Virus record (IMG/VR): IMGVR_UViG_3300037692_000261
Coordinates: 1-26,202 of that record
Source: a virus
Taxonomy: Duplodnaviria; Caudoviricetes
Direction: 5' to 3' (one strand)
DNA: 26,202 nucleotides
A program made the translations under genes and the position numbers. The notes below the pieces were generated by a model. That model did not search any database and had not been told where the DNA came from. It saw only the letters and a list, made by a program, of their open reading frames with translations. Of the stretch, positions 1 through 10,238 are shown one piece after another; position 1 is the stretch's first letter, and every line of letters begins with the position of its first letter.

Positions 1-25
1 AGTACGGTATAAAATAGATTTAGTG

Positions 26-460
26 ATGTTTAGATTTGGAAAAACGAGTAAAGAAAGATTGAGCACATGTCATAGTGATATGCAGTTAATCATGAACGAA
101 GCAATTAAAATAACCAATGTTGATTTTGGGATTGCTGAGGGTCATAGAAGCATTGAAAAGCAACAACAATATTTTAAAGAAGATAAAAGTAAGATAGATG
201 GTATCTCTAAGAAAGGGAAACACAACTATATCCCATCCTTAGCCGTAGATATTTATCCTTATTTTGAAAACTGTGCTAAATGGGATAATGAGCATTTAAG
301 CTACTTATCTGGAATTATTCACGCTGTTTCAGAAATGCTCTTCACTTCTGGAAAAATTACACACAAGATTAGATGGGGCGGTAATTGGGATATGGATGGA
401 GTTATTTTAATCGACCAATCATTCGATGATAGACCACACTTTGAATTAGTACTGCCGTAG
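26..460 (+). CDS. Endolysin, peptidase M15 family (L-Ala-D-Glu peptidase-like); cassette 1
   Basis: Motifs EGHRS, KHN..PSLAVDI, IRWGGNW and DRPHFEL typical of phage M15 endolysins; ATG at 26 preferred over GTG at 23. Confidence 0.9.
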   Translation: MFRFGKTSKERLSTCHSDMQLIMNEAIKITNVDFGIAEGHRSIEKQQQYFKEDKSKIDGISKKGKHNYIPSLAVDIYPYFENCAKWDNEHLSYLSGIIHAVSEMLFTSGKITHKIRWGGNWDMDGVILIDQSFDDRPHFELVLP

Positions 461-470
461 TATTGGCGGT

Positions 471-595
471 AACGTTACGGCGGTAAGAAACGTGCCGGAA
501 TTACGAGTACAAAACTTTCAAAATACAGATGAATTATGAACGAAGAACAAAAGATTGAGAACCCACAAAGCCCGGCATGTTTTTTACCGCATGTT
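471..595. repeat. attC-like recombination site 1 (125 bp)
   Basis: AAC(471-473), arm GCGGTAAGAAACGTGCCGG (480-498), loop, arm CCGGCATGTTTTTTACCGC (572-590), GTT(593-595); 17/19 Watson-Crick pairs plus 2 G.T pairs on the + strand. Confidence 0.8.
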
Positions 596-1321
596 GGCAG
601 CAGTACGGTGTTTAATGCTCATTATTCGGCTGTTATTGGTTTGTTTCCTGATAAATATTTTGATTGGGCGGTATGTGATATTCCTTATGGTATTGGAGTT
701 GCTAAAATGGCTTATTTAAAAGAAACGAGAACAACCGTAAAGCAAAAAAACGGAACTCGAATAAACCCAAATAGGAATAAACATAAACATACTTTTAAGG
801 ATTGGGATAATGCCACTCCACCTCAAGCATATTTTGAAGAACTGATGCGAATAAGCAAAAATCAAATAATATTTGGGGCTGATTATACCGACTGGACAGG
901 ATTAGGTAAAGGACGTATTAAATGGAATAAGGGATTTTCGGAAGGTGTGAGTTTTAACCAATTTGAATACGCTTACTGCAGCTACATAGATTATGAGATT
1001 GAAATATCTCTTTTATGGGCTGGAATGATGCAGGCTAAAAGCCTTAGTGAACCAATGGTGCAACAAGGGAACAAAAAACTAAATGAAAAAAGGATACACC
1101 CTTGCCATAAACCTGTGATGCTATATGATGCCATTTTTAAAAAATTTGGCATATACAAAATGAAAGTAATTGATACCCATTTAGGCTCGGGAAGCATACG
1201 AATTACTGCAGATAAATTTGAATGTGAATTTGTCGGCTCTGAAATTGATTCGGAATATTTTCAGGACGAAGAAAAAAGATGGTTCAATTATAAACGAAAC
1301 TTGAAACTGGCACTTTGGTAG
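536..1321 (+). CDS. DNA methyltransferase, N6-A/N4-C, beta-class order; cassette 2
   Basis: Motif IV variant DIPY near the N-terminus, HPCHKP, motif I variant DTHLGSGS, GSEID near the C-terminus. Confidence 0.88.
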   Translation: MNEEQKIENPQSPACFLPHVGSSTVFNAHYSAVIGLFPDKYFDWAVCDIPYGIGVAKMAYLKETRTTVKQKNGTRINPNRNKHKHTFKDWDNATPPQAYFEELMRISKNQIIFGADYTDWTGLGKGRIKWNKGFSEGVSFNQFEYAYCSYIDYEIEISLLWAGMMQAKSLSEPMVQQGNKKLNEKRIHPCHKPVMLYDAIFKKFGIYKMKVIDTHLGSGSIRITADKFECEFVGSEIDSEYFQDEEKRWFNYKRNLKLALW

Positions 1322-1331
1322 TATTGCTGCC

Positions 1332-1454
1332 AACGGACAAATGTTTGTGCAGTTGGGGATTATAACCCGATGCACTGTCAAAATAGTAGAAACTTAATAA
1401 ATTATAAAACAGATGAATACACCTCAGAACCCCCAATTGCATAAACATAGTGTT
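1332..1454. repeat. attC-like recombination site 2 (123 bp)
   Basis: AAC(1332-1334), arm ATGTTTGTGCAGTTGGGG (1341-1358), arm CCCCAATTGCATAAACAT (1431-1448), GTT(1452-1454); 16/18 Watson-Crick pairs plus 2 G.T pairs on the + strand. Confidence 0.8.
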
Positions 1455-1883
1455 ATCGGTTCGGCTTTTATTCCGTCCGATTTCAGAATTGGAAACTATG
1501 TTCAATCAAAAGAATGGGGAGGCTACGGACAAATTGAAGGCATTGAAGTTTTGCCCGACAGGATTGATTTTAAAGTCAAAGGATATGTTCACTCCATCAT
1601 TGAAGGTAAATACTTTGATTTAGAAAAAATCGAATTAACACCTGAGTTAATCCAAAAAATAGGATTTAAGCGATTTGAAGACAAAGGAGTTGTTGGCTTA
1701 GATTACTCAGAGCCAGAAGAAATGACAATTTGGTACGAAAAGGGCAAATTTACAATTGTGCAATGGGGCGAAAATACACCATTCCTTTTCTCTAATCACA
1801 ATTTAAGAGTTGAACTTAAATACGTTCACGAACTGCAAAATCTATTTTACACGATTGAACGTTCGGAGCTGTCTTTAAGCTAA
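1413..1883 (+). CDS. Phage hypothetical protein (RIGNYV...IELT.E...GF...YVHELQNL.Y type); cassette 3
   Basis: 156-aa ORF with a motif pattern I recall from Bacteroidota phage proteins; function unknown. Confidence 0.75.
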   Translation: MNTPQNPQLHKHSVIGSAFIPSDFRIGNYVQSKEWGGYGQIEGIEVLPDRIDFKVKGYVHSIIEGKYFDLEKIELTPELIQKIGFKRFEDKGVVGLDYSEPEEMTIWYEKGKFTIVQWGENTPFLFSNHNLRVELKYVHELQNLFYTIERSELSLS

Positions 1884-1888
1884 CCGAT

Positions 1889-2011
1889 AACGGATAGTAT
1901 AAGTTTGCGTTGCGGATTTCGGAGTGATTTCCTGTCGAGCCTCACTGCCATTTATGCGAGCTAAACAGCTCTTTGTCAGCGCGAAAACCGCAATGAAATT
2001 TATACATTGTT
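1889..2011. repeat. attC-like recombination site 3 (123 bp)
   Basis: AAC(1889-1891), arm GTATAAGTTTGCGTTGCGGATTTCG (1897-1921), arm CGAAAACCGCAATGAAATTTATAC (1982-2005), GTT(2009-2011); 2 G.T pairs, one extrahelical G, one mismatch. Confidence 0.8.
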
Positions 2012-2158
2012 AACGCCCGGTTTTAATTATTTGTCTTCATCTGTTTGTCTTTTTACTTTAAACAGTTTGAATATTTAGTCTTTCTATTAGCGTAATTATC
2101 GTTTTATTTTCTGTAAGATGTCAGTTTTAATCTGAGATTCGAAGAGAAGTCATGAACG

Positions 2159-2620
2159 TTATGAAATATCGGTTGGCACATTTTTATCTTTTCTGTGATT
2201 ATCAAATACTTCAATTCCAGTCTTTAAAAAACCAATAAGTCCAACTCCTAATACTATAGCACCAAATGATACTTCTTTAATTTGGTCGTTTTCGGTAATA
2301 AAATATCCAAACACGCCGAACGCTAATGTTGAAAACGATAGCAATATAATCAAAGCAATAATCCAAATACCTTTTTTAGGATTTTCCCAAATCTTTTTTT
2401 CAAACTTAAGTGACGTTTTTGTTGTATCCTGAAGTGAAGAAAAACTGATTCCAAGTCCTAAGAAAATCATCATATTATTTATGCTGTCTAAAGTCAAATT
2501 CATTTTATCCGCACTATCAAAAAAACCATTCAAATAGGGTTCTAAAGCAAAGTATATCACAAATATCATTAGAGGATATTGTAAATAACTTAGATAGTGA
2601 AATAATAATTTGATTTTCAT
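2159..2620 (-). CDS. Hypothetical integral membrane protein (~4 TM); cassette 4
   Basis: 153-aa ORF with four hydrophobic stretches; opposite strand to its neighbours; bounded by complementary ends 2009-2022 and 2692-2705. Confidence 0.8.
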   Translation of the reverse strand: MKIKLLFHYLSYLQYPLMIFVIYFALEPYLNGFFDSADKMNLTLDSINNMMIFLGLGISFSSLQDTTKTSLKFEKKIWENPKKGIWIIALIILLSFSTLAFGVFGYFITENDQIKEVSFGAIVLGVGLIGFLKTGIEVFDNHRKDKNVPTDIS

Positions 2621-2691
2621 TTTTCTGTCAATTTTAAAGTCTGAACAATAAGTAAATTTAGTCTTTTCTCTTGTATTTAGGCGCAGCTTTT

Positions 2692-2737
2692 AACTGGGCG
2701 TTAACGGTAAATATCATTAGTTTAAAAAATTAAACTA
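2692..2737. other. Terminal half-site of the cassette array (attI-like or secondary insertion site)
   Basis: AACTGGGCGTTAAC (2692-2705) is complementary to the start of cassette 4, but no ~120 bp palindrome follows; only a short hairpin TAGTTTAA-aaaa-TTAAACTA (2718-2737). Confidence 0.5.
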
Positions 2738-2982
2738 TGCAGCAATTATCTGATTATGAAGAAAAAAGCCTAAATAAATTAGGAGGGGCAATTACAGACG
2801 GGCAGTGGAGCAATGAGGGCTTGGTTCAATTAATTAAACTGTCAGGGGGTTTTCTTAATTTACAAACAATTGCAGACTATGCTCAAAACAACAAGATAAG
2901 CTACCAGGCAGCTAAAAAAAATGCAGCGTATAGAAAAAATATTGAAATTTTCAACTGTAAATTTGTAATTGATAATGAATAG
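2737..2982 (+). CDS. Small hypothetical protein, possible HTH-like DNA-binding
   Basis: 81 aa; LQTIADYAQNNKISYQAAKK resembles a helix-turn-helix pattern. Confidence 0.65.
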   Translation: MQQLSDYEEKSLNKLGGAITDGQWSNEGLVQLIKLSGGFLNLQTIADYAQNNKISYQAAKKNAAYRKNIEIFNCKFVIDNE

Positions 2983-2986
2983 TAAT

Positions 2987-3340
2987 ATGAAAACAGCAAA
3001 AGAAGCAATTAATAACTTTTTTGAAGCATGGAAAAAGGCCGATTTTGAAACTATGTACAACAATTGTACCTACACCTGGCGCGATGGGCACCCGGTTAGC
3101 GAGTTGATAACCATTTTTAAAAACAGGCAGCTGTTAAGCTATTCTGTTTTGAAAAGCACTGCCGGTAATGCTACCATACATGCGGTTGATTTTAAGGTTA
3201 AGGTTAAGGTTAAGGATGAGGTTAATATTAAAAGCATTATTTTACGTAAGGTGCGAACGGTACCCGAACTTAAAGCCTACCGTAACGACCCTAAAGGCTT
3301 TTTCGGAGTAAATCCGATAAGTGTACTTTATAATTTATAA
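2987..3340 (+). CDS. Hypothetical protein, possibly NTF2-like fold
   Basis: N-terminal TAKEAINNFFEAWKKADFETMY is like NTF2-family openings, followed by beta-strand-like segments; start 2987 or 2975. Confidence 0.6.
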   Translation: MKTAKEAINNFFEAWKKADFETMYNNCTYTWRDGHPVSELITIFKNRQLLSYSVLKSTAGNATIHAVDFKVKVKVKDEVNIKSIILRKVRTVPELKAYRNDPKGFFGVNPISVLYNL

Positions 3341-3366
3341 TTGATATCTAACGATTAAATTTTTAA

Positions 3367-3615
3367 ATGATGAAAAAGTTTTTAATTGCAAATGCCTTAT
3401 ATGGTCTAAGCAAGCAAGTGCCAGCGGATGAACTTGCACAATTAAAAAAAGATCTTTCAGGTGCAACCGAAGCACCCCAGTTACAAATCATTCATAATGC
3501 CTACATGCGCGAAAAAATGGGCAAAATTGAGAAACATGTAAAAACAATCAGGCTCATAGCTGTTGTCATGTTTGTTTTTACCATTTTGGGTGCAATTATT
3601 TACGCACTTGCGTAA
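3367..3615 (+). CDS. Small hypothetical protein with C-terminal TM helix
   Basis: 82-aa ORF ending LIAVVMFVFTILGAIIYALA. Confidence 0.65.
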   Translation: MMKKFLIANALYGLSKQVPADELAQLKKDLSGATEAPQLQIIHNAYMREKMGKIEKHVKTIRLIAVVMFVFTILGAIIYALA

Positions 3616-3654
3616 AAAAATCCCCGTAAAAATTGGCTGGTCTTTTAGTGTTTT

Positions 3655-3693
3655 AACCCTGTCAGGTTTCAAAAACCTAACAGGGTTTTTTTT
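3655..3693 (+). terminator. Intrinsic terminator / REP-like hairpin between convergent gene blocks
   Basis: AACCCTGTCAGGTTT-caa-AAACCTAACAGGGTT (14/15 stem) running into a T tract. Confidence 0.75.
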
Positions 3694-4129
3694 ATGAAGG
3701 AATGTCATGCAGCGTGGTGGTGTAGGTAATGCGGTAGACCGGCTTGTTATTGCGCCGCTTTTCGCGAATAGCCGATTTTCGACTTAGTGGCGAAAGTGTC
3801 CAGGTGTTTGTCCAGCCCTGTAGCTGTTTATGCACATCCTCGATAGTGTCGAACACGCTCATTGCCGTTGTCCGGTTTTCGGCTGATGTTGCTGCGTTTG
3901 TCGCCCCACGATGGTCAAATGAAATGCGTAGTACTATTTCAACATCGGCAATTTGTTCTTGTTTGGCAATATCGTCGCAACTTGGATAGATAAGGTCTAT
4001 AAGGCAGCACGGGTAAGTTACTGCAGGCCGTTCGGCTTCTAGTTGGCCGTTATCCCAATCAATCCATCGTAATGCCGGTACGTTTGTTTCGAGCCTGTCG
4101 CATAGGCTTGTGAATGCTTGTTTGTTCAT
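3692..4129 (-). CDS. Putative tail completion/terminator protein (Mu gp37-like)
   Basis: LRWIDWDNGQLE..RPAVTYPCCLID and VHKQLQGW pattern; position after the morphogenesis gene. Confidence 0.7.
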   Translation of the reverse strand: MNKQAFTSLCDRLETNVPALRWIDWDNGQLEAERPAVTYPCCLIDLIYPSCDDIAKQEQIADVEIVLRISFDHRGATNAATSAENRTTAMSVFDTIEDVHKQLQGWTNTWTLSPLSRKSAIREKRRNNKPVYRITYTTTLHDIPS

Positions 4130-4132
4130 AAT

Positions 4133-4160
4133 AAACCCCCTAACCCCCTAAAGGGGGGAT
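4133..4160. repeat. Short C/G hairpin with tandem AACCCCCT repeat (REP-like)
   Basis: AAACCCCCTAACCCCCTAAAGGGGGGAT in the intergenic gap. Confidence 0.4.
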
Positions 4161-4179
4161 TTTGGCCGGGGACGCCTTT

Positions 4180-4641
4180 TTAATGCCAGAAGGCTTTTGC
4201 AAAGCCTTCGATGCGGGTTTTTATTTTACTTGTCAATTCTTTAGCATCTCCCAAAAAAGGGCGGGCATCGATGTCGACATTACGGGTATGTGCCTTAACT
4301 TCTTTGCCTTTGCGCGTATGAGTTGGTATGTTAATTACCCCCTTAAACCCTTCGTTGTGTACTTTTGCGTAGTTTACCTTATCGTTTCCGGCTTGTATAA
4401 TTACTTCTTTAGGCGTAACTACTGCCGGTTCAATGCTGTTCATTAAACCGCTGCTATCAATTAGCAACGAGCCTGTACTTTTAGCTGTTTTAGCAGGTCC
4501 CCATGCTTTTTTATCGAATGCTTTTTTATTAAAAGCTTCTTTACCATACTCAACCGCCGTTTCGGCAATAATGTCGGGCACTGCCTCTTGTACTTCGTGT
4601 CGGAAGTTTTCGAAATATGTTGCTAAATCGGTAATTGTCAT
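4180..4641 (-). CDS. Phage virion morphogenesis protein (Mu G / tail_S family)
   Basis: Motifs LIDSSGLMNSI, YAKVHNEG, ARPFLG. Confidence 0.88.
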   Translation of the reverse strand: MTITDLATYFENFRHEVQEAVPDIIAETAVEYGKEAFNKKAFDKKAWGPAKTAKSTGSLLIDSSGLMNSIEPAVVTPKEVIIQAGNDKVNYAKVHNEGFKGVINIPTHTRKGKEVKAHTRNVDIDARPFLGDAKELTSKIKTRIEGFAKAFWH

Positions 4642-4676
4642 AATTCAAAAGTTATTAAAATGTCATTAATAAGTTG

Positions 4677-4684
4677 TAACTTTG
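4677..4684 (+). promoter_or_regulatory. Bacteroidota -7 promoter box TAACTTTG, antisense to the head operon
   Basis: Exact TAnnTTTG match just upstream of a structured element; -33 box not evident. Confidence 0.55.
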
Positions 4685-4689
4685 GTTTA

Positions 4690-4794
4690 TTGTTTAAGCT
4701 GTTGAGTTGGTGCCATTACCCCGGAGCGGAGGGACACCGGCGTTATTCCAGCTAAAAACAAAAGCTCTAACCTGGCATTTTGCCGGGTTTTTTT
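4690..4794 (+). ncRNA. Putative structured small RNA
   Basis: -7 box upstream; closing stem TTGTTTAAGCTG/CAGCTAAAAACAA; GC-rich inner stems (TGCC/GGCG, CCC/GGG); terminator downstream. Confidence 0.55.
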
Positions 4795-7340
4795 ATGAGT
4801 AAGCCTTGTCGGTAGCGGTCCATGGTTTCGCGGCCTTCCTGTACCGAAAACCATGTTTTTACTTCGTACAAATTTCCACCCTTAATTTTTGCAACTACCA
4901 CCATTGTTTCGTCGGTGTTATACTTAATGAAAACGTACTGGTCGAAAGTATCGGAGCCCGCCGCATTAATCCAAACCTCATCGGGGACTTTTAGCGTTTC
5001 CGATGCCGATTTTATGTAAGGTACCCGTTCTTGCAACTTGGTTGAATGGCCTTTTAAATAGCGTTTCAATGAGAATTCAATTTTTCGGTCGTTATAGTCG
5101 GTGAAGAAGGTTTTGCCATCCTCTTTTTTCAAGCCGTTTACATAATCTTCAATTGTTCCCTGATACTTCGCCACTGCTGTGGCTGCTTTTTTTCGGTTTG
5201 CTTCAAAACTGCCAAGCTTATAGGTATTGTAGTTCACATTCTTTAACAAGCGTTTGGCCATGGTCGGAAATTTTTTGATGTACAATTGGTTGGCATTAAA
5301 TAACTGTGGTGTTAAAGCCCTGTTTACTCCAAATCCCTGTGCTTTTGCAGCTTTAAATTCTGGGCCTTTAATATAGGCATCAGCTTTTGCACGCATGGCT
5401 TTAAGGTCAACTGAACTTACTTCGTGGGCCATAACGCCAACTACATAGCAGCGGCATTTCCAGCCGTTTGGGGGCCATATTTGCGCCCAGCGCGGATCGT
5501 TTGCAGCAAGAATAAGCCCGTTCAACGCAGCATGTTCCGGGCGCGTACGTTCGTCGATCACGGCCACATACTTCCAGTATGGAAAAAGATGAGTTTTGCT
5601 TTTAAGGCGGTTATAATTGGCAGTACTTTCGCTTATTAGCGTTGCGCTTTGCCATTCGGTTTTTTGCCAGGTTTTATTAAACACATCGACCTTTTCGACG
5701 GCCGATTTGTAAAAATCGTCAAAGCTTTTACTTTTTCGGTATAAACCGTTAAGGGTTTGCAATTCGGCCACTGTTTTAGCTGCCGAAAAGTGAAAAATAT
5801 TCAACTCCTGAGCCGTCCTAAAAGCATCGTTTTGGTGTTTGTAGGTAAAACCGAGATCGGCCATCTCGACAAGCTCGATGACCGCACCGCTGTCGGAAAG
5901 GCGCGTTGGTTTAGCGTCGAGCGCGGTGATAAGGTTAAGGCTTATGAAAGCAAACAAATCGGGATAAAAAGTTTCACCTTCAATCGCAGCGTTAATGATG
6001 CGATCACTTAAACTTTCGTCAGAAAGTTTTACTCCCCATTCAGGGAGCTGGGGTGGTGTGTGGAATTTGGATGTTGCCCCGCTCCCCGGGGCCGATGCGA
6101 AAAAATCCAACAGCTGTTTAAAAAAGTTTCGATCAGATTGTTGAATGTTGCCATCGGGCTGTGGTGTTGGATCGCCTGCTACCCGACTTATTTGTTCGAC
6201 ACCTGGCATATTTCGGCGGGCAATTGGCTCACCGTCCTGGGCTTCGGGTATTCCAAATTTTTCGAAGATGAAATAGGCCGGAATATCAACTATGTCGCTT
6301 AAAGATACAATATCGTCCACGGTAAGGCTGTCGGGAGCTTCCGGGAATATGAATGTACCACCACCTACCGGAAAACCACGGCTTTCCAGAATAGGCTTAA
6401 CAATGTAATTAAGGATGCGGCCAACATACTTCATGTCAGCTTTTGTCTTATCCTGCTGTACTTCCATGTGGACCTCGCTCTGGCTGCGACTACTACCGTC
6501 GAGCGTGGTCATGGTTTGTCCGAGGATGGTAATAAGCATCTCTTCATTACAGGCTTTGCGAAAATCGTTATAGCTCGTGTTTGATGAACCATTTGCACCA
6601 TCGCTGCTTTCCGTTACATCGGCCTCTTTTGGTATAACTATCCAGGGTGCCGATCCTGCTTTTTCGGCAGCATCTTCTAAAAGTTGTTTTGTGGCCGGAT
6701 CGGTAGCACTGTACTTGAAAACGCGCTTAGGCATGCCAAACACTTCGAGCCATTCGGCCCAATCGCCAAATCCTCCACGCTTCCATATGGCATAAGGTGC
6801 AGCTTTAAGCAATAAACCAAAATCACGAGGTTTTCCTACAATCAATAAATGATCGTCAATACTGTAATCGATACCCGTTTCGTCAGTATCGTTAATCAAG
6901 ATCATCTTGTTTTCGGGACGAATGTATTTGGTTGGGATTGGTTCAAAATTGAAACTGTTTTCGATTTCGACATTAAAGTCGAACTCACCACCTGCGCGAC
7001 CTTTGAAAATTTTCCACATAATTTCCCCCAGCAGGCTTTCGAAGCCGGGTGAATCGATCATGCTGATTATTTCTTCGACTTCCTCGCCGTTTTCGTCGTG
7101 AAAGGTTAATTCAGACAGCTTTACCGCATCGATGCGCTTGTCGATAGCATCGCTTAACACGCCATCGATCAACAAATCGTCGAAGAGGTCGTACAATGCT
7201 TTGACTTTTCCTTTATCGGCACTTTGCAGAGCTGTGCGCCATGCCCCCACATCGCTTGTGGTACGTTGTGGTGTTTTTATGATGATCTGGTTTACCACCA
7301 AATTTTCATTGCCTGTACTTTTTTTAACTTTTACTGCCAT
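4767..7340 (-). CDS. Portal protein (DUF935/Mu gp29-like) fused to MuF (gp30-like) and a C-terminal PBECR2-like nuclease domain
   Basis: Portal motifs GLLLKAAP..IWKR, W.E.FGMP, ILGQTMTT..GSSRSQSEVH; MuF motif YVAVIDERTRPEH...PPNGWKCRC; C-terminal TLKVPDEVW...YVFIKY...KTWF. Confidence 0.85.
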   Translation of the reverse strand: MAVKVKKSTGNENLVVNQIIIKTPQRTTSDVGAWRTALQSADKGKVKALYDLFDDLLIDGVLSDAIDKRIDAVKLSELTFHDENGEEVEEIISMIDSPGFESLLGEIMWKIFKGRAGGEFDFNVEIENSFNFEPIPTKYIRPENKMILINDTDETGIDYSIDDHLLIVGKPRDFGLLLKAAPYAIWKRGGFGDWAEWLEVFGMPKRVFKYSATDPATKQLLEDAAEKAGSAPWIVIPKEADVTESSDGANGSSNTSYNDFRKACNEEMLITILGQTMTTLDGSSRSQSEVHMEVQQDKTKADMKYVGRILNYIVKPILESRGFPVGGGTFIFPEAPDSLTVDDIVSLSDIVDIPAYFIFEKFGIPEAQDGEPIARRNMPGVEQISRVAGDPTPQPDGNIQQSDRNFFKQLLDFFASAPGSGATSKFHTPPQLPEWGVKLSDESLSDRIINAAIEGETFYPDLFAFISLNLITALDAKPTRLSDSGAVIELVEMADLGFTYKHQNDAFRTAQELNIFHFSAAKTVAELQTLNGLYRKSKSFDDFYKSAVEKVDVFNKTWQKTEWQSATLISESTANYNRLKSKTHLFPYWKYVAVIDERTRPEHAALNGLILAANDPRWAQIWPPNGWKCRCYVVGVMAHEVSSVDLKAMRAKADAYIKGPEFKAAKAQGFGVNRALTPQLFNANQLYIKKFPTMAKRLLKNVNYNTYKLGSFEANRKKAATAVAKYQGTIEDYVNGLKKEDGKTFFTDYNDRKIEFSLKRYLKGHSTKLQERVPYIKSASETLKVPDEVWINAAGSDTFDQYVFIKYNTDETMVVVAKIKGGNLYEVKTWFSVQEGRETMDRYRQGLLIKKPGKMPG
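4771..4794 (+). terminator. Intrinsic terminator overlapping the last codons of the portal-MuF gene on the opposite strand
   Basis: CCTGGCA-ttt-TGCCGGG followed by T7. Confidence 0.7.
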
Positions 7341-7369
7341 AATTTAAGTCATTAATAAATAGTTATTAA

Positions 7370-7789
7370 TTAGAAATGCTGCGATTTTTTTGCATTGCTG
7401 CCGTAGCGTATCTGAGCAGTATATTCAACGCCGTCGGTGGTTTCTAGGGTTGGTAAGTCGGGGACAATATTCCCTTTCATTACATCTTTTAACCAGGTAA
7501 CGGCACGGTCGTACACCTGTTTGCGATATTCGTAATTGACACCTGCAGCCGATAGCTTCACGAGGTGAAAAGCGGCAAGGTCCTTACACATTGTTAACAG
7601 CAATTGATTACGGCTACTGCTGGTTTGTGCAAAAATGGTATCCTTGTCGTAATTGCTCAGGTAGCCTTTAGCTTCCGATACTGCCGTATCGATCGCCGAG
7701 GTAACAAGTGTATCGTCGCTTCGGGTAATTACGTCTACATTTTCCTCGTAGAGGTAATTTTTCATTTCTGTAATGCTTATGAATGACAT
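7370..7789 (-). CDS. Mu gp36-like (DUF1320) head-tail adaptor
   Basis: AVSEAKGYL..YD, DLAAFHL, YDRAVTWLKDV.KG...PDLP. Confidence 0.85.
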   Translation of the reverse strand: MSFISITEMKNYLYEENVDVITRSDDTLVTSAIDTAVSEAKGYLSNYDKDTIFAQTSSSRNQLLLTMCKDLAAFHLVKLSAAGVNYEYRKQVYDRAVTWLKDVMKGNIVPDLPTLETTDGVEYTAQIRYGSNAKKSQHF

Positions 7790-8094
7790 GGCTCTGTGAA
7801 TTTAGGTGTTTCAGTATTAGTGTCGAAATAGCAAAAAGGCTGCATGTTTGTTGCATTTACGTGCCAATCCCAATTACCGAAATGCTTTTGGCGTTGAATG
7901 TCTTGTCGGGTCATTGCCCGGTATTTACGGCCAACGAAAAAAACCCGGTAGCGTTTTCGTTTTTTCGGGTTGATGTGCGATGCTTCGTGCAGCTTTTTAG
8001 CTTTTTTAATAGCACGTTTCAACTTCCACGGGCTACCGTGCCAGCGGGTACCAAGGTTAAACCAAATTGCGCGTATGTACATTAAACCTTTCAT
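7777..8094 (-). CDS. Basic hypothetical phage protein
   Basis: 105-aa ORF tightly packed between the terminase and gp36-like genes. Confidence 0.7.
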   Translation of the reverse strand: MKGLMYIRAIWFNLGTRWHGSPWKLKRAIKKAKKLHEASHINPKKRKRYRVFFVGRKYRAMTRQDIQRQKHFGNWDWHVNATNMQPFCYFDTNTETPKFTEPCHS

Positions 8095-8095
8095 T

Positions 8096-9640
8096 TTAAA
8101 ATCGTTTTTTAGAGTTATGTTTTACCCGTCCAATTTTGATAGTGTCGGGCTTAATTGATGCAATTTTTTCGTTAATAATCCATACCCCACCTTCGATACA
8201 ATCGGGACCATCGGCAGGGGCTTTCAACTGCATTGTAAACAGCTTAAACTGCTCTTCGAGACGTAACATGTGCGGATTGTTTTTTTCATCTTCATTCAGG
8301 ATTAACTGACCATTACGGTTCAGCGGTTCGAGATTACCTTCGATACGTGTTGGCTTTTCGGGCTTACGGCGATCGTCGGGCGAAATGCTTATGAACCCGT
8401 CTGTTTTGCCTTTTTCAAATAACGCGGGTTTAGTTACCTGCTCATAGAAGGGGTCCTGGAGGCTATTGTTTTCGATGTAGTTGTACACCTGTGTTTTATC
8501 GCCTACATACTTTTTTTGATCGTAAAACCAGTTGATGAAAGTGGCCTGTGGTGCCTGTTCGAGAAAACCATGGTATACGTAAAACTTGCCATCTTTATAT
8601 CCAATTAAGAACTGCGATTTGAACGAAACGCCTTTCTTTTGCTTATCCTTATTGCTTGGTGAAGGGTCGGAATAGTTCACCACGAAAGGGAGCGACGAAA
8701 GTGGAGGGCATTTGCCCCATACCATTTCTTTGAATATGTCGCCTTCGCTTAACGGGTTGTTCATATACTCACCTTCGTAAGCCATGGTACTTATTTTTGC
8801 CTTGATGCGGGCAATGTGTTCGGGTTTATTTTTTTCGGGCCATGAGCTTTCGCCGGTTTTGGTTTCGAGGTTAACCGTATCGGTTTTATCGGCTTTTTCC
8901 GATGCTCGTACTACGCAGCAATCCTTTGCTATCATATTGCCTAACCAAATGTATTGCGTATCCTTCGAAACCGAACGGGTTGGAAAAACGGCTTTTTCGA
9001 ACCATTCCCAACGCTTGCTAATTACGTCGGGGTTACGTACATCCTCATCGGTATCGATATCAGAAATAATAATCTTATCGGGCCTTACCTCTTCATCGCG
9101 GCTACCACGGGGCGACTGCCCGGCACCAACGGCCAAAAAACTTGCGCCCTGTGTTGTGGTAAAATCACCATCAGCCCAACTGCCTGCCATTTGTTGCGTG
9201 CCGTAATCGGCAATAATACGGGCGTTACTTTCGAGATTTATTTTGTACGGTTTTAGTAAATCGCAAGCTTTATCGTAGCTGTTTGATATGAACAGTACAT
9301 TACGCTTTTGTTTCGTTAAAACCTGCTTTATGGTCACCATCATTTCAACCACATCCTTTGCAAGTTCACGGCTCCATAGGCGGACTTCGTACCACTCGGG
9401 GTTTGACAGTTCGCGGTTCATTGCCCTGATGTGAAAACCAGGTGACGGCGCATAGCAATATTTTGGAAAGTAATAGGCACACCATTGGCGGTTATCGGCT
9501 TCGAGGCGGGAAATGCGCTTTTTTCGTTCACTTTCGGTTTCGTTTGTCGCAGCTTCAACATCGGCAATAAAGCTTTCGTAGTAGCTGTCCCAGTCGCGCC
9601 CGGCCTGCCTGTCAATTGGTTTTAGAGTAGTACCAGCCAT
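8096..9640 (-). CDS. Terminase large subunit
   Basis: WSRELAK Walker-A-like, GAGQSPRG, RPD...D.D, EYMNNP, YSDPS, C-terminal DGPDCIEG. Confidence 0.88.
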   Translation of the reverse strand: MAGTTLKPIDRQAGRDWDSYYESFIADVEAATNETESERKKRISRLEADNRQWCAYYFPKYCYAPSPGFHIRAMNRELSNPEWYEVRLWSRELAKDVVEMMVTIKQVLTKQKRNVLFISNSYDKACDLLKPYKINLESNARIIADYGTQQMAGSWADGDFTTTQGASFLAVGAGQSPRGSRDEEVRPDKIIISDIDTDEDVRNPDVISKRWEWFEKAVFPTRSVSKDTQYIWLGNMIAKDCCVVRASEKADKTDTVNLETKTGESSWPEKNKPEHIARIKAKISTMAYEGEYMNNPLSEGDIFKEMVWGKCPPLSSLPFVVNYSDPSPSNKDKQKKGVSFKSQFLIGYKDGKFYVYHGFLEQAPQATFINWFYDQKKYVGDKTQVYNYIENNSLQDPFYEQVTKPALFEKGKTDGFISISPDDRRKPEKPTRIEGNLEPLNRNGQLILNEDEKNNPHMLRLEEQFKLFTMQLKAPADGPDCIEGGVWIINEKIASIKPDTIKIGRVKHNSKKRF

Positions 9641-9642
9641 CC

Positions 9643-10092
9643 TTACCGCTTTAGAAGGTCCTTAATAAAATCGTTGCAAATGTTCACAACGTGAAGGGTA
9701 TCGGGGTGGTTTTGCGAACGCATCCAGTCGCCCAGGCGTTTGGCAACTTCAACGATATCAGAAATACTAGCATCGGTTTCGAGGCGTTGTATTGAGGTGG
9801 TGAGCTTGCTTATAGTATCGGCCTCTTTGGGGTCGGCAAAGCGTTTACCGGCTTCGCGGTTCATAATGTGCGTGTTCAATTCATCAAGCTGCATATACAG
9901 GCGTTCGAGCTGGGCTGTTCGGGTGGCCAGCATAGAGCGGCGCAGGCTTTCCCAATTAAACTTTTTAAACCATTTATTCATGGTAATGGGTGTGACGCCT
10001 ACTATTTCGGCAGCTTCTTTTTGCGTGTGGCCCTGTTTACATATAAGGTCCTGCGCCCAGCGTTGCCTGTCGTTCATTTTTAAAGCTCCCAT
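9643..10092 (-). CDS. Putative terminase small subunit with N-terminal HTH
   Basis: TQKEAAEIVGVTPITMNKW HTH followed by W; immediately upstream of TerL; ATG at 10092 preferred. Confidence 0.8.
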   Translation of the reverse strand: MGALKMNDRQRWAQDLICKQGHTQKEAAEIVGVTPITMNKWFKKFNWESLRRSMLATRTAQLERLYMQLDELNTHIMNREAGKRFADPKEADTISKLTTSIQRLETDASISDIVEVAKRLGDWMRSQNHPDTLHVVNICNDFIKDLLKR

Positions 10093-10131
10093 AATGCTGA
10101 TTTTTAACACGAAACTAAGCCTTACGCATGC

Positions 10132-10215
10132 GCAAATCTAATTTTTGCGTCATTGTGACACTATATAATGTCACAATGGCACTAAAATTTGAAAAGGTCT
10201 GATTTATAGATTTGC
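10132..10215. promoter_or_regulatory. Divergent late promoter pair with central dyad operator
   Basis: TAGATTTGC on both strands (minus 10132-10140, plus 10207-10215); perfect inverted repeat CATTGTGACA-N8-TGTCACAATG (10151-10178). Confidence 0.7.
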
Positions 10216-10238
10216 TTAGTGTTTCAAAAATTAAAGAA

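Follow-up and report, generated by a model that had tools for sequence, protein, structure and literature searches.

Integron cassettes and related systems

The closest described relatives of the array analysed here are the attC sites of integrons. Like the hairpins of this array, they are imperfect hairpins of 57–141 nt bounded by AAC and GTT triplets, with a G·T-rich bottom strand, an inferred crossover in AAC and complementary cassette ends, and the sedentary chromosomal attC sites share with the array a length of about 120–129 nt as well (PMC5027507, PMC5371416). The origin of integron-type cassettes has been described as largely unknown (PMC5371416). Among phages, the nearest counterparts are the CALINs reported by Qi et al. 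(2023; PMC9892861), integrase-less clusters of attC sites that often carry N6/N4 methylase genes. One of these sites, attC1 of Polaribacter phage P12002L, presents the same core and the same asymmetric-loop pattern as the hairpins described below, and of the six phage sites assayed with IntI1 it alone failed to recombine (PMC9892861). The available text of that paper, unlike the present analysis, mentions neither start codons in the sites nor inverted genes.

A precedent for translation starts borne by recombination sites is provided by ORF-11 and ORF-17 in attI1 and by the short ORFs found in attC, in which a site-borne start spans the crossover and aids start-less cassettes (PMC8876359). These reading frames lie on the fixed platform, or form a separate top-strand short ORF, and act by coupling (PMC8876359), whereas in the phage units the start is located within each mobile unit, on the bottom strand, and is fused in frame to the unit's own gene. 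Phage CALINs with methylases (PMC9892861) and attI1 starts and short attC ORFs (PMC8876359) are thus already published. A literature search that covered few subscription journals returned no description of loop-borne starts or of inverted phage cassettes.

The array described here works like integron cassettes but departs from them in three defining respects: extrahelical bases, IntI and gene orientation. In contrast to the situation in integrons, the phage genes come after the hairpin on the bottom strand and have their start codon in its loop. Most stems lack extrahelical bases and show instead a fixed G·T and, next to the core, an asymmetric loop of 2–5 bases. In addition, the linked recombinase does not possess the IntI insertion, and the hairpins are also re-joined at their second core. 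From the sequences compared, we consider it probable that the hairpins are integron-like single-strand recombination sites of Bacteroidota, that the phage genes are placed after their hairpin, and that the hairpin loop supplies the translation start.

A hairpin array in a Mu-like phage record

The sequence under study (the window) is an entire virus record of 26,202 bases, about 33% complete, which encodes the Mu-like head, terminase and tail set of a partial Mu-like phage. Its initial 2.7 kb contain an endolysin, an N6/N4 DNA methylase, ORF3 (phrog_10066) and, on the minus strand, the hydrophobic ORF4. The homologues of ORF4 come mainly from Bacteroidota genomes, which points to a phage of Bacteroidota type and to Bacteroidota as the host group; several of these homologues lie within hairpin arrays in Bacteroidota chromosomes.

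The window opens just inside the 5' flank of the endolysin body (phrog_465; 2–460, plus strand, ATG at 26), a few bases past a GTT core (1–25). Since a hairpin and GTT core precede the endolysin in the sister contig L239, the endolysin is a cassette body too. In that contig the right arm of the pre-endolysin hairpin (L239:4869–5020) is apparently inverted between short inverted repeats, either as a real inversion or as an assembly artefact, and an 11-base tandem duplication is found at a body end. The endolysin body closes with an end repeat (460–473) that includes the left AAC core (TAAC 470–473), the inferred main crossover point. It runs into site 1 (470–595), a hairpin of 126 nt with arms at 480–498 and 572–590, an asymmetric loop beside the core, an A-rich loop holding the start region of the methyltransferase (MTase), and the right core GTT at 593–595. 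The MTase (PF01555; 536–1321, plus strand) has 261 residues, the first 19 of which come from the hairpin, with Val20 encoded by the GTT, and its conserved fold begins at Ser23. Its end repeat (1321–1334) is complementary to 593–606 at 13 of 14 bases and includes the left core of site 2 (CAAC 1331–1334). Site 2 (1331–1454, 124 nt; arms 1341–1358 and 1431–1448) carries a loop ATG at 1413 and its right core GTT at 1452–1454; this ATG opens ORF3 (1413–1883, plus strand), a 156-residue protein with no assigned function, whose residues 1–13 derive from the hairpin and whose Val14 is the GTT. Site 3 (1888–2011, 124 nt) sits downstream of the minus-strand ORF4 (2159–2620, 153 aa), that is, in the canonical position, so that ORF4 and site 3 constitute a bacterial-type cassette, in canonical orientation, within the phage array. 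The ORF4 body closes with an end repeat (2694–2705) complementary to 2009–2020, which contains a terminal half-site (TAAC 2702–2705).

This half-site has no hairpin partner, and different sequence is joined there in other contigs. A fourth hairpin after 2702 was considered and rejected, given the absence of a partner arm. The stretch 2702–2784 holds the partnerless half-site followed by an 81-aa ORF (phrog_18952); contigs of X1 and X2 attach other sequence at 2702, and one contig departs at 2784. Further along, a short GGTTAA tandem run within a 123-aa ORF (3184–3231) is aligned by many unrelated contigs, and the minus strand of 4767–7340 encodes an 857-aa protein in which a Mu-like portal is fused to a Mu F head domain and, at the C terminus, to a PBECR2 nuclease-like domain. 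At the ends of the endolysin and MTase bodies (449–473 and 1309–1334) a small local hairpin lies at each stop codon, and both share GTAGTATTG. An Rfam search of 1–4200 gave four matches, every one far under the gathering score.

The three hairpin sites had been described in an earlier note made from the sequence alone, and all its coordinates proved correct on recheck. This includes the relationship between stop codons and end repeats (TAG 458–460 and TAG 1319–1321 overlap the first base of the end repeat, and TAA 1881–1883 lies inside that of ORF3) and the TGA at 1994–1996 of site 3, which closes the frame of the GTT at 2009. An arm-pairing detector found exactly three hairpins in 1–5000, with scores of 27–29, and two weak matches (18 and 22) in 5001–26202; at a score of at least 23, it recovered 36 sites in 30 real loci versus one in shuffled loci. 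Single-strand folding z-scores are modest, from −2.0 to −2.4 for the plus strand versus −0.6 to −1.4 for the minus strand, the plus strand being the better folder at all three window sites.

The comparison with related loci allowed these features to be placed against those of attC. The window sites, 124–126 nt long, have the AAC and GTT triplets bounding an imperfect hairpin within the 57–141 nt range, the AAC-to-GTT span falls between 115 and 129 nt in 146 of 204 viral sites, and the extended RRRY consensus is kept loosely. There is a second length class of 80–89 nt (39 of the 204), in which a loop start is rare (3 of 40 short sites, L098+ set), and a third of about 184 nt that is common in bacterial arrays. 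Extrahelical bases on the arm opposite AAC are mostly absent: window sites 1 and 2 have no stem bulge, and 253 of 326 stems are bulge-free, while 14 have extra bases on the GTT arm and 59 on the AAC arm. Beside the core, 2–5 extra bases are present on the AAC arm in 317 of the 326 stems, and a G·T occupies one fixed position in 260 of 304. The ends of the cassette bodies are complementary, as in integron cassettes, pairing at 5.7 of 8 bases (n = 209) versus 3.0 for shuffled partners. The sites are not independent, since they form hairpin families and many recombinase loci come from one study, so the statistical certainty of such counts is overstated. Other searches were less productive: the right-arm pattern of site 1 had no match in viral contigs, nor did the site 1 sequence in GenBank phages; a loose left-arm pattern matched fewer times than its control in 151 genomes of the family Flavobacteriaceae; and a metagenome scan for the ORF3 start returned two loci, both repeats of L005/L006.

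Polarity and boundaries of the exchanged units

The notion that the phage genes are reversed cassettes, proposed in the earlier note from the G·T bias of the strands, holds in the larger set of sites: the plus strand of the window is the G·T strand, the units switch at the left AAC, and the hairpin goes with the gene that follows it. Known attC sites have a G·T-rich bottom strand, in whose AAC the cut is made (PMC5027507), and the bottom strand of the aadA7 attC likewise reads TAAC-G...T-GTT (supplement of PMC9892861). As in attC, G·T exceeds A·C on the strand reading TAAC-G in 188 of 204 sites, oriented solely by the base after AAC, and the opposite is observed in one. The plus strand is therefore of the bottom type, and the rightward genes are inverted relative to the bacterial arrays of the same hairpin. 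Indeed, 54 of 64 bacterial sites were called reverse, that is, in the canonical gene direction, with 2 forward and 8 unclear, versus 238 forward, 31 reverse and 61 unclear among 330 viral sites; these calls follow a simple frame-length rule that over-calls reverse. In the window, ORF4 has the canonical arrangement of a cassette gene, being encoded on the top strand, ahead of its own site and with a start that lies outside that site; the MTase, ORF3 and the endolysin do not.

The boundaries of the units can be read from contigs in which the array differs. In the sister contig L239/L004, two extra hairpin-plus-body units are found precisely between the AAC of the endolysin and the site-1 hairpin, which is identical over the 108 bases present in that contig. 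A contig of run X1, which may be the source sample of the window, spans 470–1335 and then enters a different hairpin arm, and, among 24 of 33 loose ends, some of other contigs fall at 1332, 1888, 1889 (twice), 1893 and 2702 (twice). These left-AAC junctions, in L239 and the X1–X3 contigs, place the crossover, by comparison, in the bottom-strand AAC, as would be expected of cassettes. The linkage between neighbours agrees with this polarity. In a set of 381 oriented viral sites, two sites with the same downstream body also had the same hairpin in 8 of 8 cases when the bodies were at least 95% identical, in 2 of 4 at 90–95% and in none of 3 at 80–90%. A shared upstream body was accompanied by a shared hairpin in none of 12 pairs, and no pair has only the hairpin and the upstream body in common.

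A candidate recombinase and the ends of the arrays

The contig encodes no recombinase, and hence no IntI: no match to PF00589 is present in this record, which is about 33% complete. As regards a possible CALIN, three hairpins within 1.6 kb and no integrase in a partial record stand beside stems that mostly lack the extrahelical bases. Five endolysin-related phage records, three of them at least 90% complete, also contain no recombinase, and the array is mostly absent from them. In the case of the window, the enzyme would probably come from the host or from the missing part of the genome, as the contig is partial.

A candidate emerged from related viral records, two of five of which carry a recombinase directly past the last cassette. 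Among the best 80 of 120 viral relatives of this 267-aa protein (L261:9450–10253), 42 of 47 loci with at least 2 kb upstream of the XerA-like gene have hairpins there. Of these hairpins, 154 share the orientation described here, 2 have the opposite one and 8 could not be oriented clearly, versus a single hairpin downstream; one study contributed many of the loci. A conserved half-site, TAAC-TACTATATGTA, lies about 55 nt ahead of the recombinase start (L265–L344). Several of these contigs start exactly at this half-site, as expected of a variable junction. The half-site of the window at 2702 differs in sequence from that of its relatives, yet it is a junction point. A 375–400-aa relative of the recombinase, with 43% identity, is encoded in 20 of 61 Flavobacteriaceae-type genomes, where a GTT site and then canonical arrays follow. 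In L250, L253 and L345–L356, all bacterial, the recombinase gene is co-directional with the array, the GTT site comes after its stop and the arrays extend for tens of kb.

The best profile for the array-linked recombinases is NF040815 (XerA-like), and they score 139–215 bits on TIGR02249, whose cut-off is 265. XerA-like tyrosine recombinases are both the best family match and the best structure match (PDB 4a8e and 5hxy). Known XerA acts on double-stranded dif-type sites, whereas the genes considered here adjoin hairpin arrays. In Bacteroidales, the rAID arrays, which are immunity-gene arrays of gut Bacteroidales, have an XerD-like recombinase beside small genes separated by repeats, and we know of no report of hairpin-borne starts in them. 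When aligned with IntI4, the array-linked recombinase matches in two parts, with 36 residues facing 84, so that a stretch of IntI4 is missing; the IntI-specific insertion has been described as essential to integron function (PMC8138268). No GenBank phage matched the array-linked recombinase at E ≤ 1e-40. From its position, we infer that the XerA-like recombinase acts on the hairpins.

A second exchange point at the GTT core

The left AAC is not the only point at which the arrays are rearranged. The hairpin family of site 2 has eight distinct bodies among ten members, with identity ending directly after GTTA, and loose ends of contigs are found at the right core at 1456 (X1) and 2014 (X1–X3). 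Compared in this way, the sequences indicate that the hairpins are also exchanged at the GTT core, which fuses one leader to many unrelated genes. Such joints may arise through recombination of the other strand, through new capture or, in part, through homologous recombination. The link between hairpin and gene looks looser than in a classical cassette, because 10 of 16 pairs of hairpins with at least 97% identity have unrelated bodies on both sides and because the MTase body bears different leaders in L001 and L002, at 89–92% protein identity.

These facts raise the question of whether hairpin and gene body are independent modules, both cores being cut at comparable rates, in which case the array would be a combinatorial shuffler and a source of new cassettes. 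The many bodies of the site-2 family, the ten pairs just mentioned, the loose ends at the right core and the attachment of MTase homologues to leaders in all three frames speak for this idea. We nonetheless regard it as unlikely: the hairpin follows near-identical downstream bodies and is lost as these diverge, upstream bodies never retain it, and the repeated birth of cassettes would likewise yield a homogeneous hairpin family with many bodies. Besides, top-strand recombination of known attC sites is 1,000–10,000-fold rarer (PMC5027507).

Still less probable is a reading in which the hairpins are dispersed repeats that provide homology for the homologous recombination of phage or host, with the cores and the nearby recombinase as relics. 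Some hairpins are in fact chimeric or one-armed (L002, L066, L072), which points to some homologous recombination as well; hairpin families show 80–100% identity, and the contig has no recombinase. However, unrelated hairpins are joined exactly at a core of 4–5 bases, body ends co-vary across hundreds of bases, the single G·T position is retained throughout most stems, and the arrays terminate at a conserved half-site next to the recombinase in 42 of 47 loci.

Probable start codons inside the hairpin loops

The earlier note had placed the ATG of the MTase (536) in the loop of site 1, with GTT 593–595 as codon 20 (FLPHVGSS), and that of ORF3 (1413) in the loop of site 2, with GTT 1452–1454 as codon 14 (LHKHSVIGS), and it had suggested that the att-like site doubles as translation start and N-terminal leader. 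Both positions are right and, from the sequence evidence that follows, the loop ATGs are likely the starts of the two genes. A further suggestion, that ACAGATGAAT is common to both loops, was borne out, the motif occurring in the window only at 525 and 1409, but its role as a shared start signal had to be rejected. Its ATG is the gene start in site 2 only; in site 1, where the motif spans 525–534, the ATG at 529 lies 7 nt upstream of the MTase start, out of the MTase frame, and opens a frame of nine codons (TGA 556–558).

An alignment of homologues, put forward in the same note as a check, showed that conservation of the MTase begins only past the Val encoded by GTT and that the leader is not conserved. 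Among the best 120 of 1,598 homologues, identity does not exceed 0.19 at residues 2–19, is 0.23 at Val20 and reaches 0.78 at Ser23, and many homologues are leaderless, beginning about two residues ahead of the conserved Ser (near position 21). Accordingly with these figures, an AlphaFold model of the MTase (77 sequences, mean pLDDT 89) has coil at residues 1–22, with pLDDT 59–69, and its first strand at 23–26. In ORF3, there is no in-frame ATG, GTG or TTG from the GTT to codon 47, and the conserved RIGN motif at residues 25–28 (35 of 38 homologues aligned) lies ahead of that codon.

The association is general. At loci collected by a left-arm pattern scan (129 of about 450 estimated stretches), the loop of long hairpins (105–140 nt) holds an ATG in frame at 35 of 41 sites with a GTT frame that is open for 40 codons, versus 5 of 38 in which it is closed; in the set picked by recombinase, the figures are 26 of 33 versus 14 of 68. 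The context of the loop ATGs agrees with the determinants of translation start reported for F. johnsoniae, A at −12, −13 and −3 (PMC6847099): A is present at −12 in 82% and at −13 in 71%, and at −3 in 86 of 138 loop ATGs; for internal ATGs this last figure is 97 of 270, and for loop ATGs that are out of frame it is 11 of 57. The ORF3 ATG, with C at −3, is an exception. It should be considered that the bottom strands of attC are purine-rich (PMC5027507), and A-rich loops could mimic a start region for structural reasons. A loop start is common, not universal: roughly half of the viral sites lack a read-through gene (75 of 182 classified as 'none', plus 23 open without a loop ATG), and at most of these the gene begins after the GTT. 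In L011 (2906–3031), the loop ATG of an ORF3 homologue is one base off the body frame, unlike in the near-identical L010, which may reflect a pseudogene or a sequence error.

As for the reading of the GTT as Val in frame, which the earlier note had presented as a property of these sites, Val is indeed the commonest frame and the phase is not random, but it is not a rule for all sites, applying to about two thirds of those read through. In the left-arm set, a reading frame opened by a loop ATG runs through 54 of 120 sites, with the GTT as Val in 36, in the next frame in 11 and in the third in 7; in the recombinase set (155 sites), 48 are read through, with 29, 11 and 8, respectively. With both remaining frames in use as well, the idea of an obligatory Val was discarded, and the MTase homologues apparently have leaders in all three. 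Related hairpins, in turn, hold their frame across different bodies in 30 of 33 links (16 families). An identical arm sequence yields FCQTD-V in one member but FAKPM in another, which indicates that the arm is constrained as DNA and that what persists is the frame match.

The earlier note had also raised the possibility that the hairpin gates translation. Taken further, this would make the loop start mainly regulatory, with the start region held inside an RNA hairpin. The RNA stem is predicted to be stable, pairing codons ~9–19, and attC stem-loops have been reported to impede translation of the downstream cassette, an effect relieved by short ORFs in attC (PMC8876359). We consider this role very improbable, because predictions leave most of the start region unpaired (mean 0.62–0.68) and because bacterial arrays, whose mRNA is not made of this strand, have the wobble bias, the fixed G·T and the asymmetric loop to an equal degree; moreover, neither an alternative structure nor leader conservation suggests a switch, the rough pN/pS being 0.5 for the loop and 0.8 for the arm. 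Finally, that the loop ATGs are incidental and the real starts lie downstream of the GTT, at GTG 608 or at ATT codons, is scarcely credible in spite of the preference of gene callers for the longest frame, the leaderless homologues and the frequent later in-frame ATGs of read-through genes, given that GTG 608, which the earlier note had named as the start that would overturn its proposal, is not conserved as a start codon (it is GTA in L002), has a G-rich upstream context and encodes Val25 within the first strand, past Ser23, that ORF3 has no ATG, GTG or TTG until after its RIGN motif, and that loop ATGs correlate with open downstream frames.

A model for the phage cassettes and its implications

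The observations favouring loop-borne starts at integron-like sites can be integrated in a model in which an XerA-like tyrosine recombinase, whose gene closes the arrays of related phages and heads those of bacteria, would cut the folded plus strand in AAC and move circular units made of a hairpin and a gene. Inversion would let the cassettes be read off the rightward phage transcript; a sigma-70 promoter and terminator scan, ill-suited to Bacteroidota promoters, stayed at chance level. As the phage genes lie after, not before, their hairpin, the loop can act as supplier of the start: along with the ATG and the first 13–19 residues, it likely provides the ribosome entry site, which would make each unit self-sufficient in translation. 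Less often, the joint would form at the right GTT core, through other-strand recombination or new capture, and give the leader to an unrelated body; if only in-frame joints persist, the phase bias of the GTT follows. What is kept is probably a DNA-level structure, with the leader peptide as its tolerated by-product. The layout itself is real, and likely functional.

A more ambitious proposal, which we put forward tentatively and hold to be somewhat less than evenly supported, is that of a separate cassette system of Bacteroidota and their phages, in which an XerA-like recombinase devoid of the IntI insertion works on bulge-free hairpins, and the phage hairpin serves as a portable start module, to which start-less bodies are joined as well, at the second core. 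If this were true, the arrays would show new mobile cassettes and new protein N-termini in the making. Because related phages join the same hairpins to other genes, the predicted swap sites are likely portable translation starts.

The cultured Flavobacterium phage filifjonk9-1 (MN812206) has the same layout, with 12 oriented hairpins, and with 11 such hairpins in 8 kb (1945–10228) around five methylase genes, and the annotated starts of its methylase genes gp010 and gp017 fall within two hairpins. Experimental tests are, therefore, feasible. With one hairpin family fused in frame, at an exact core, to a variety of unrelated bodies, the arrays offer a system in which cassette formation could be watched. 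For annotation, the layout explains the recurrent N-terminal peptides ending in V-S/G-S on unrelated phage proteins. The model would also extend single-strand hairpin recombination past IntI, to an XerA-like enzyme and to sites without canonical bulges, and it would explain the swapping of methylases and other accessory genes among Bacteroidota phages.
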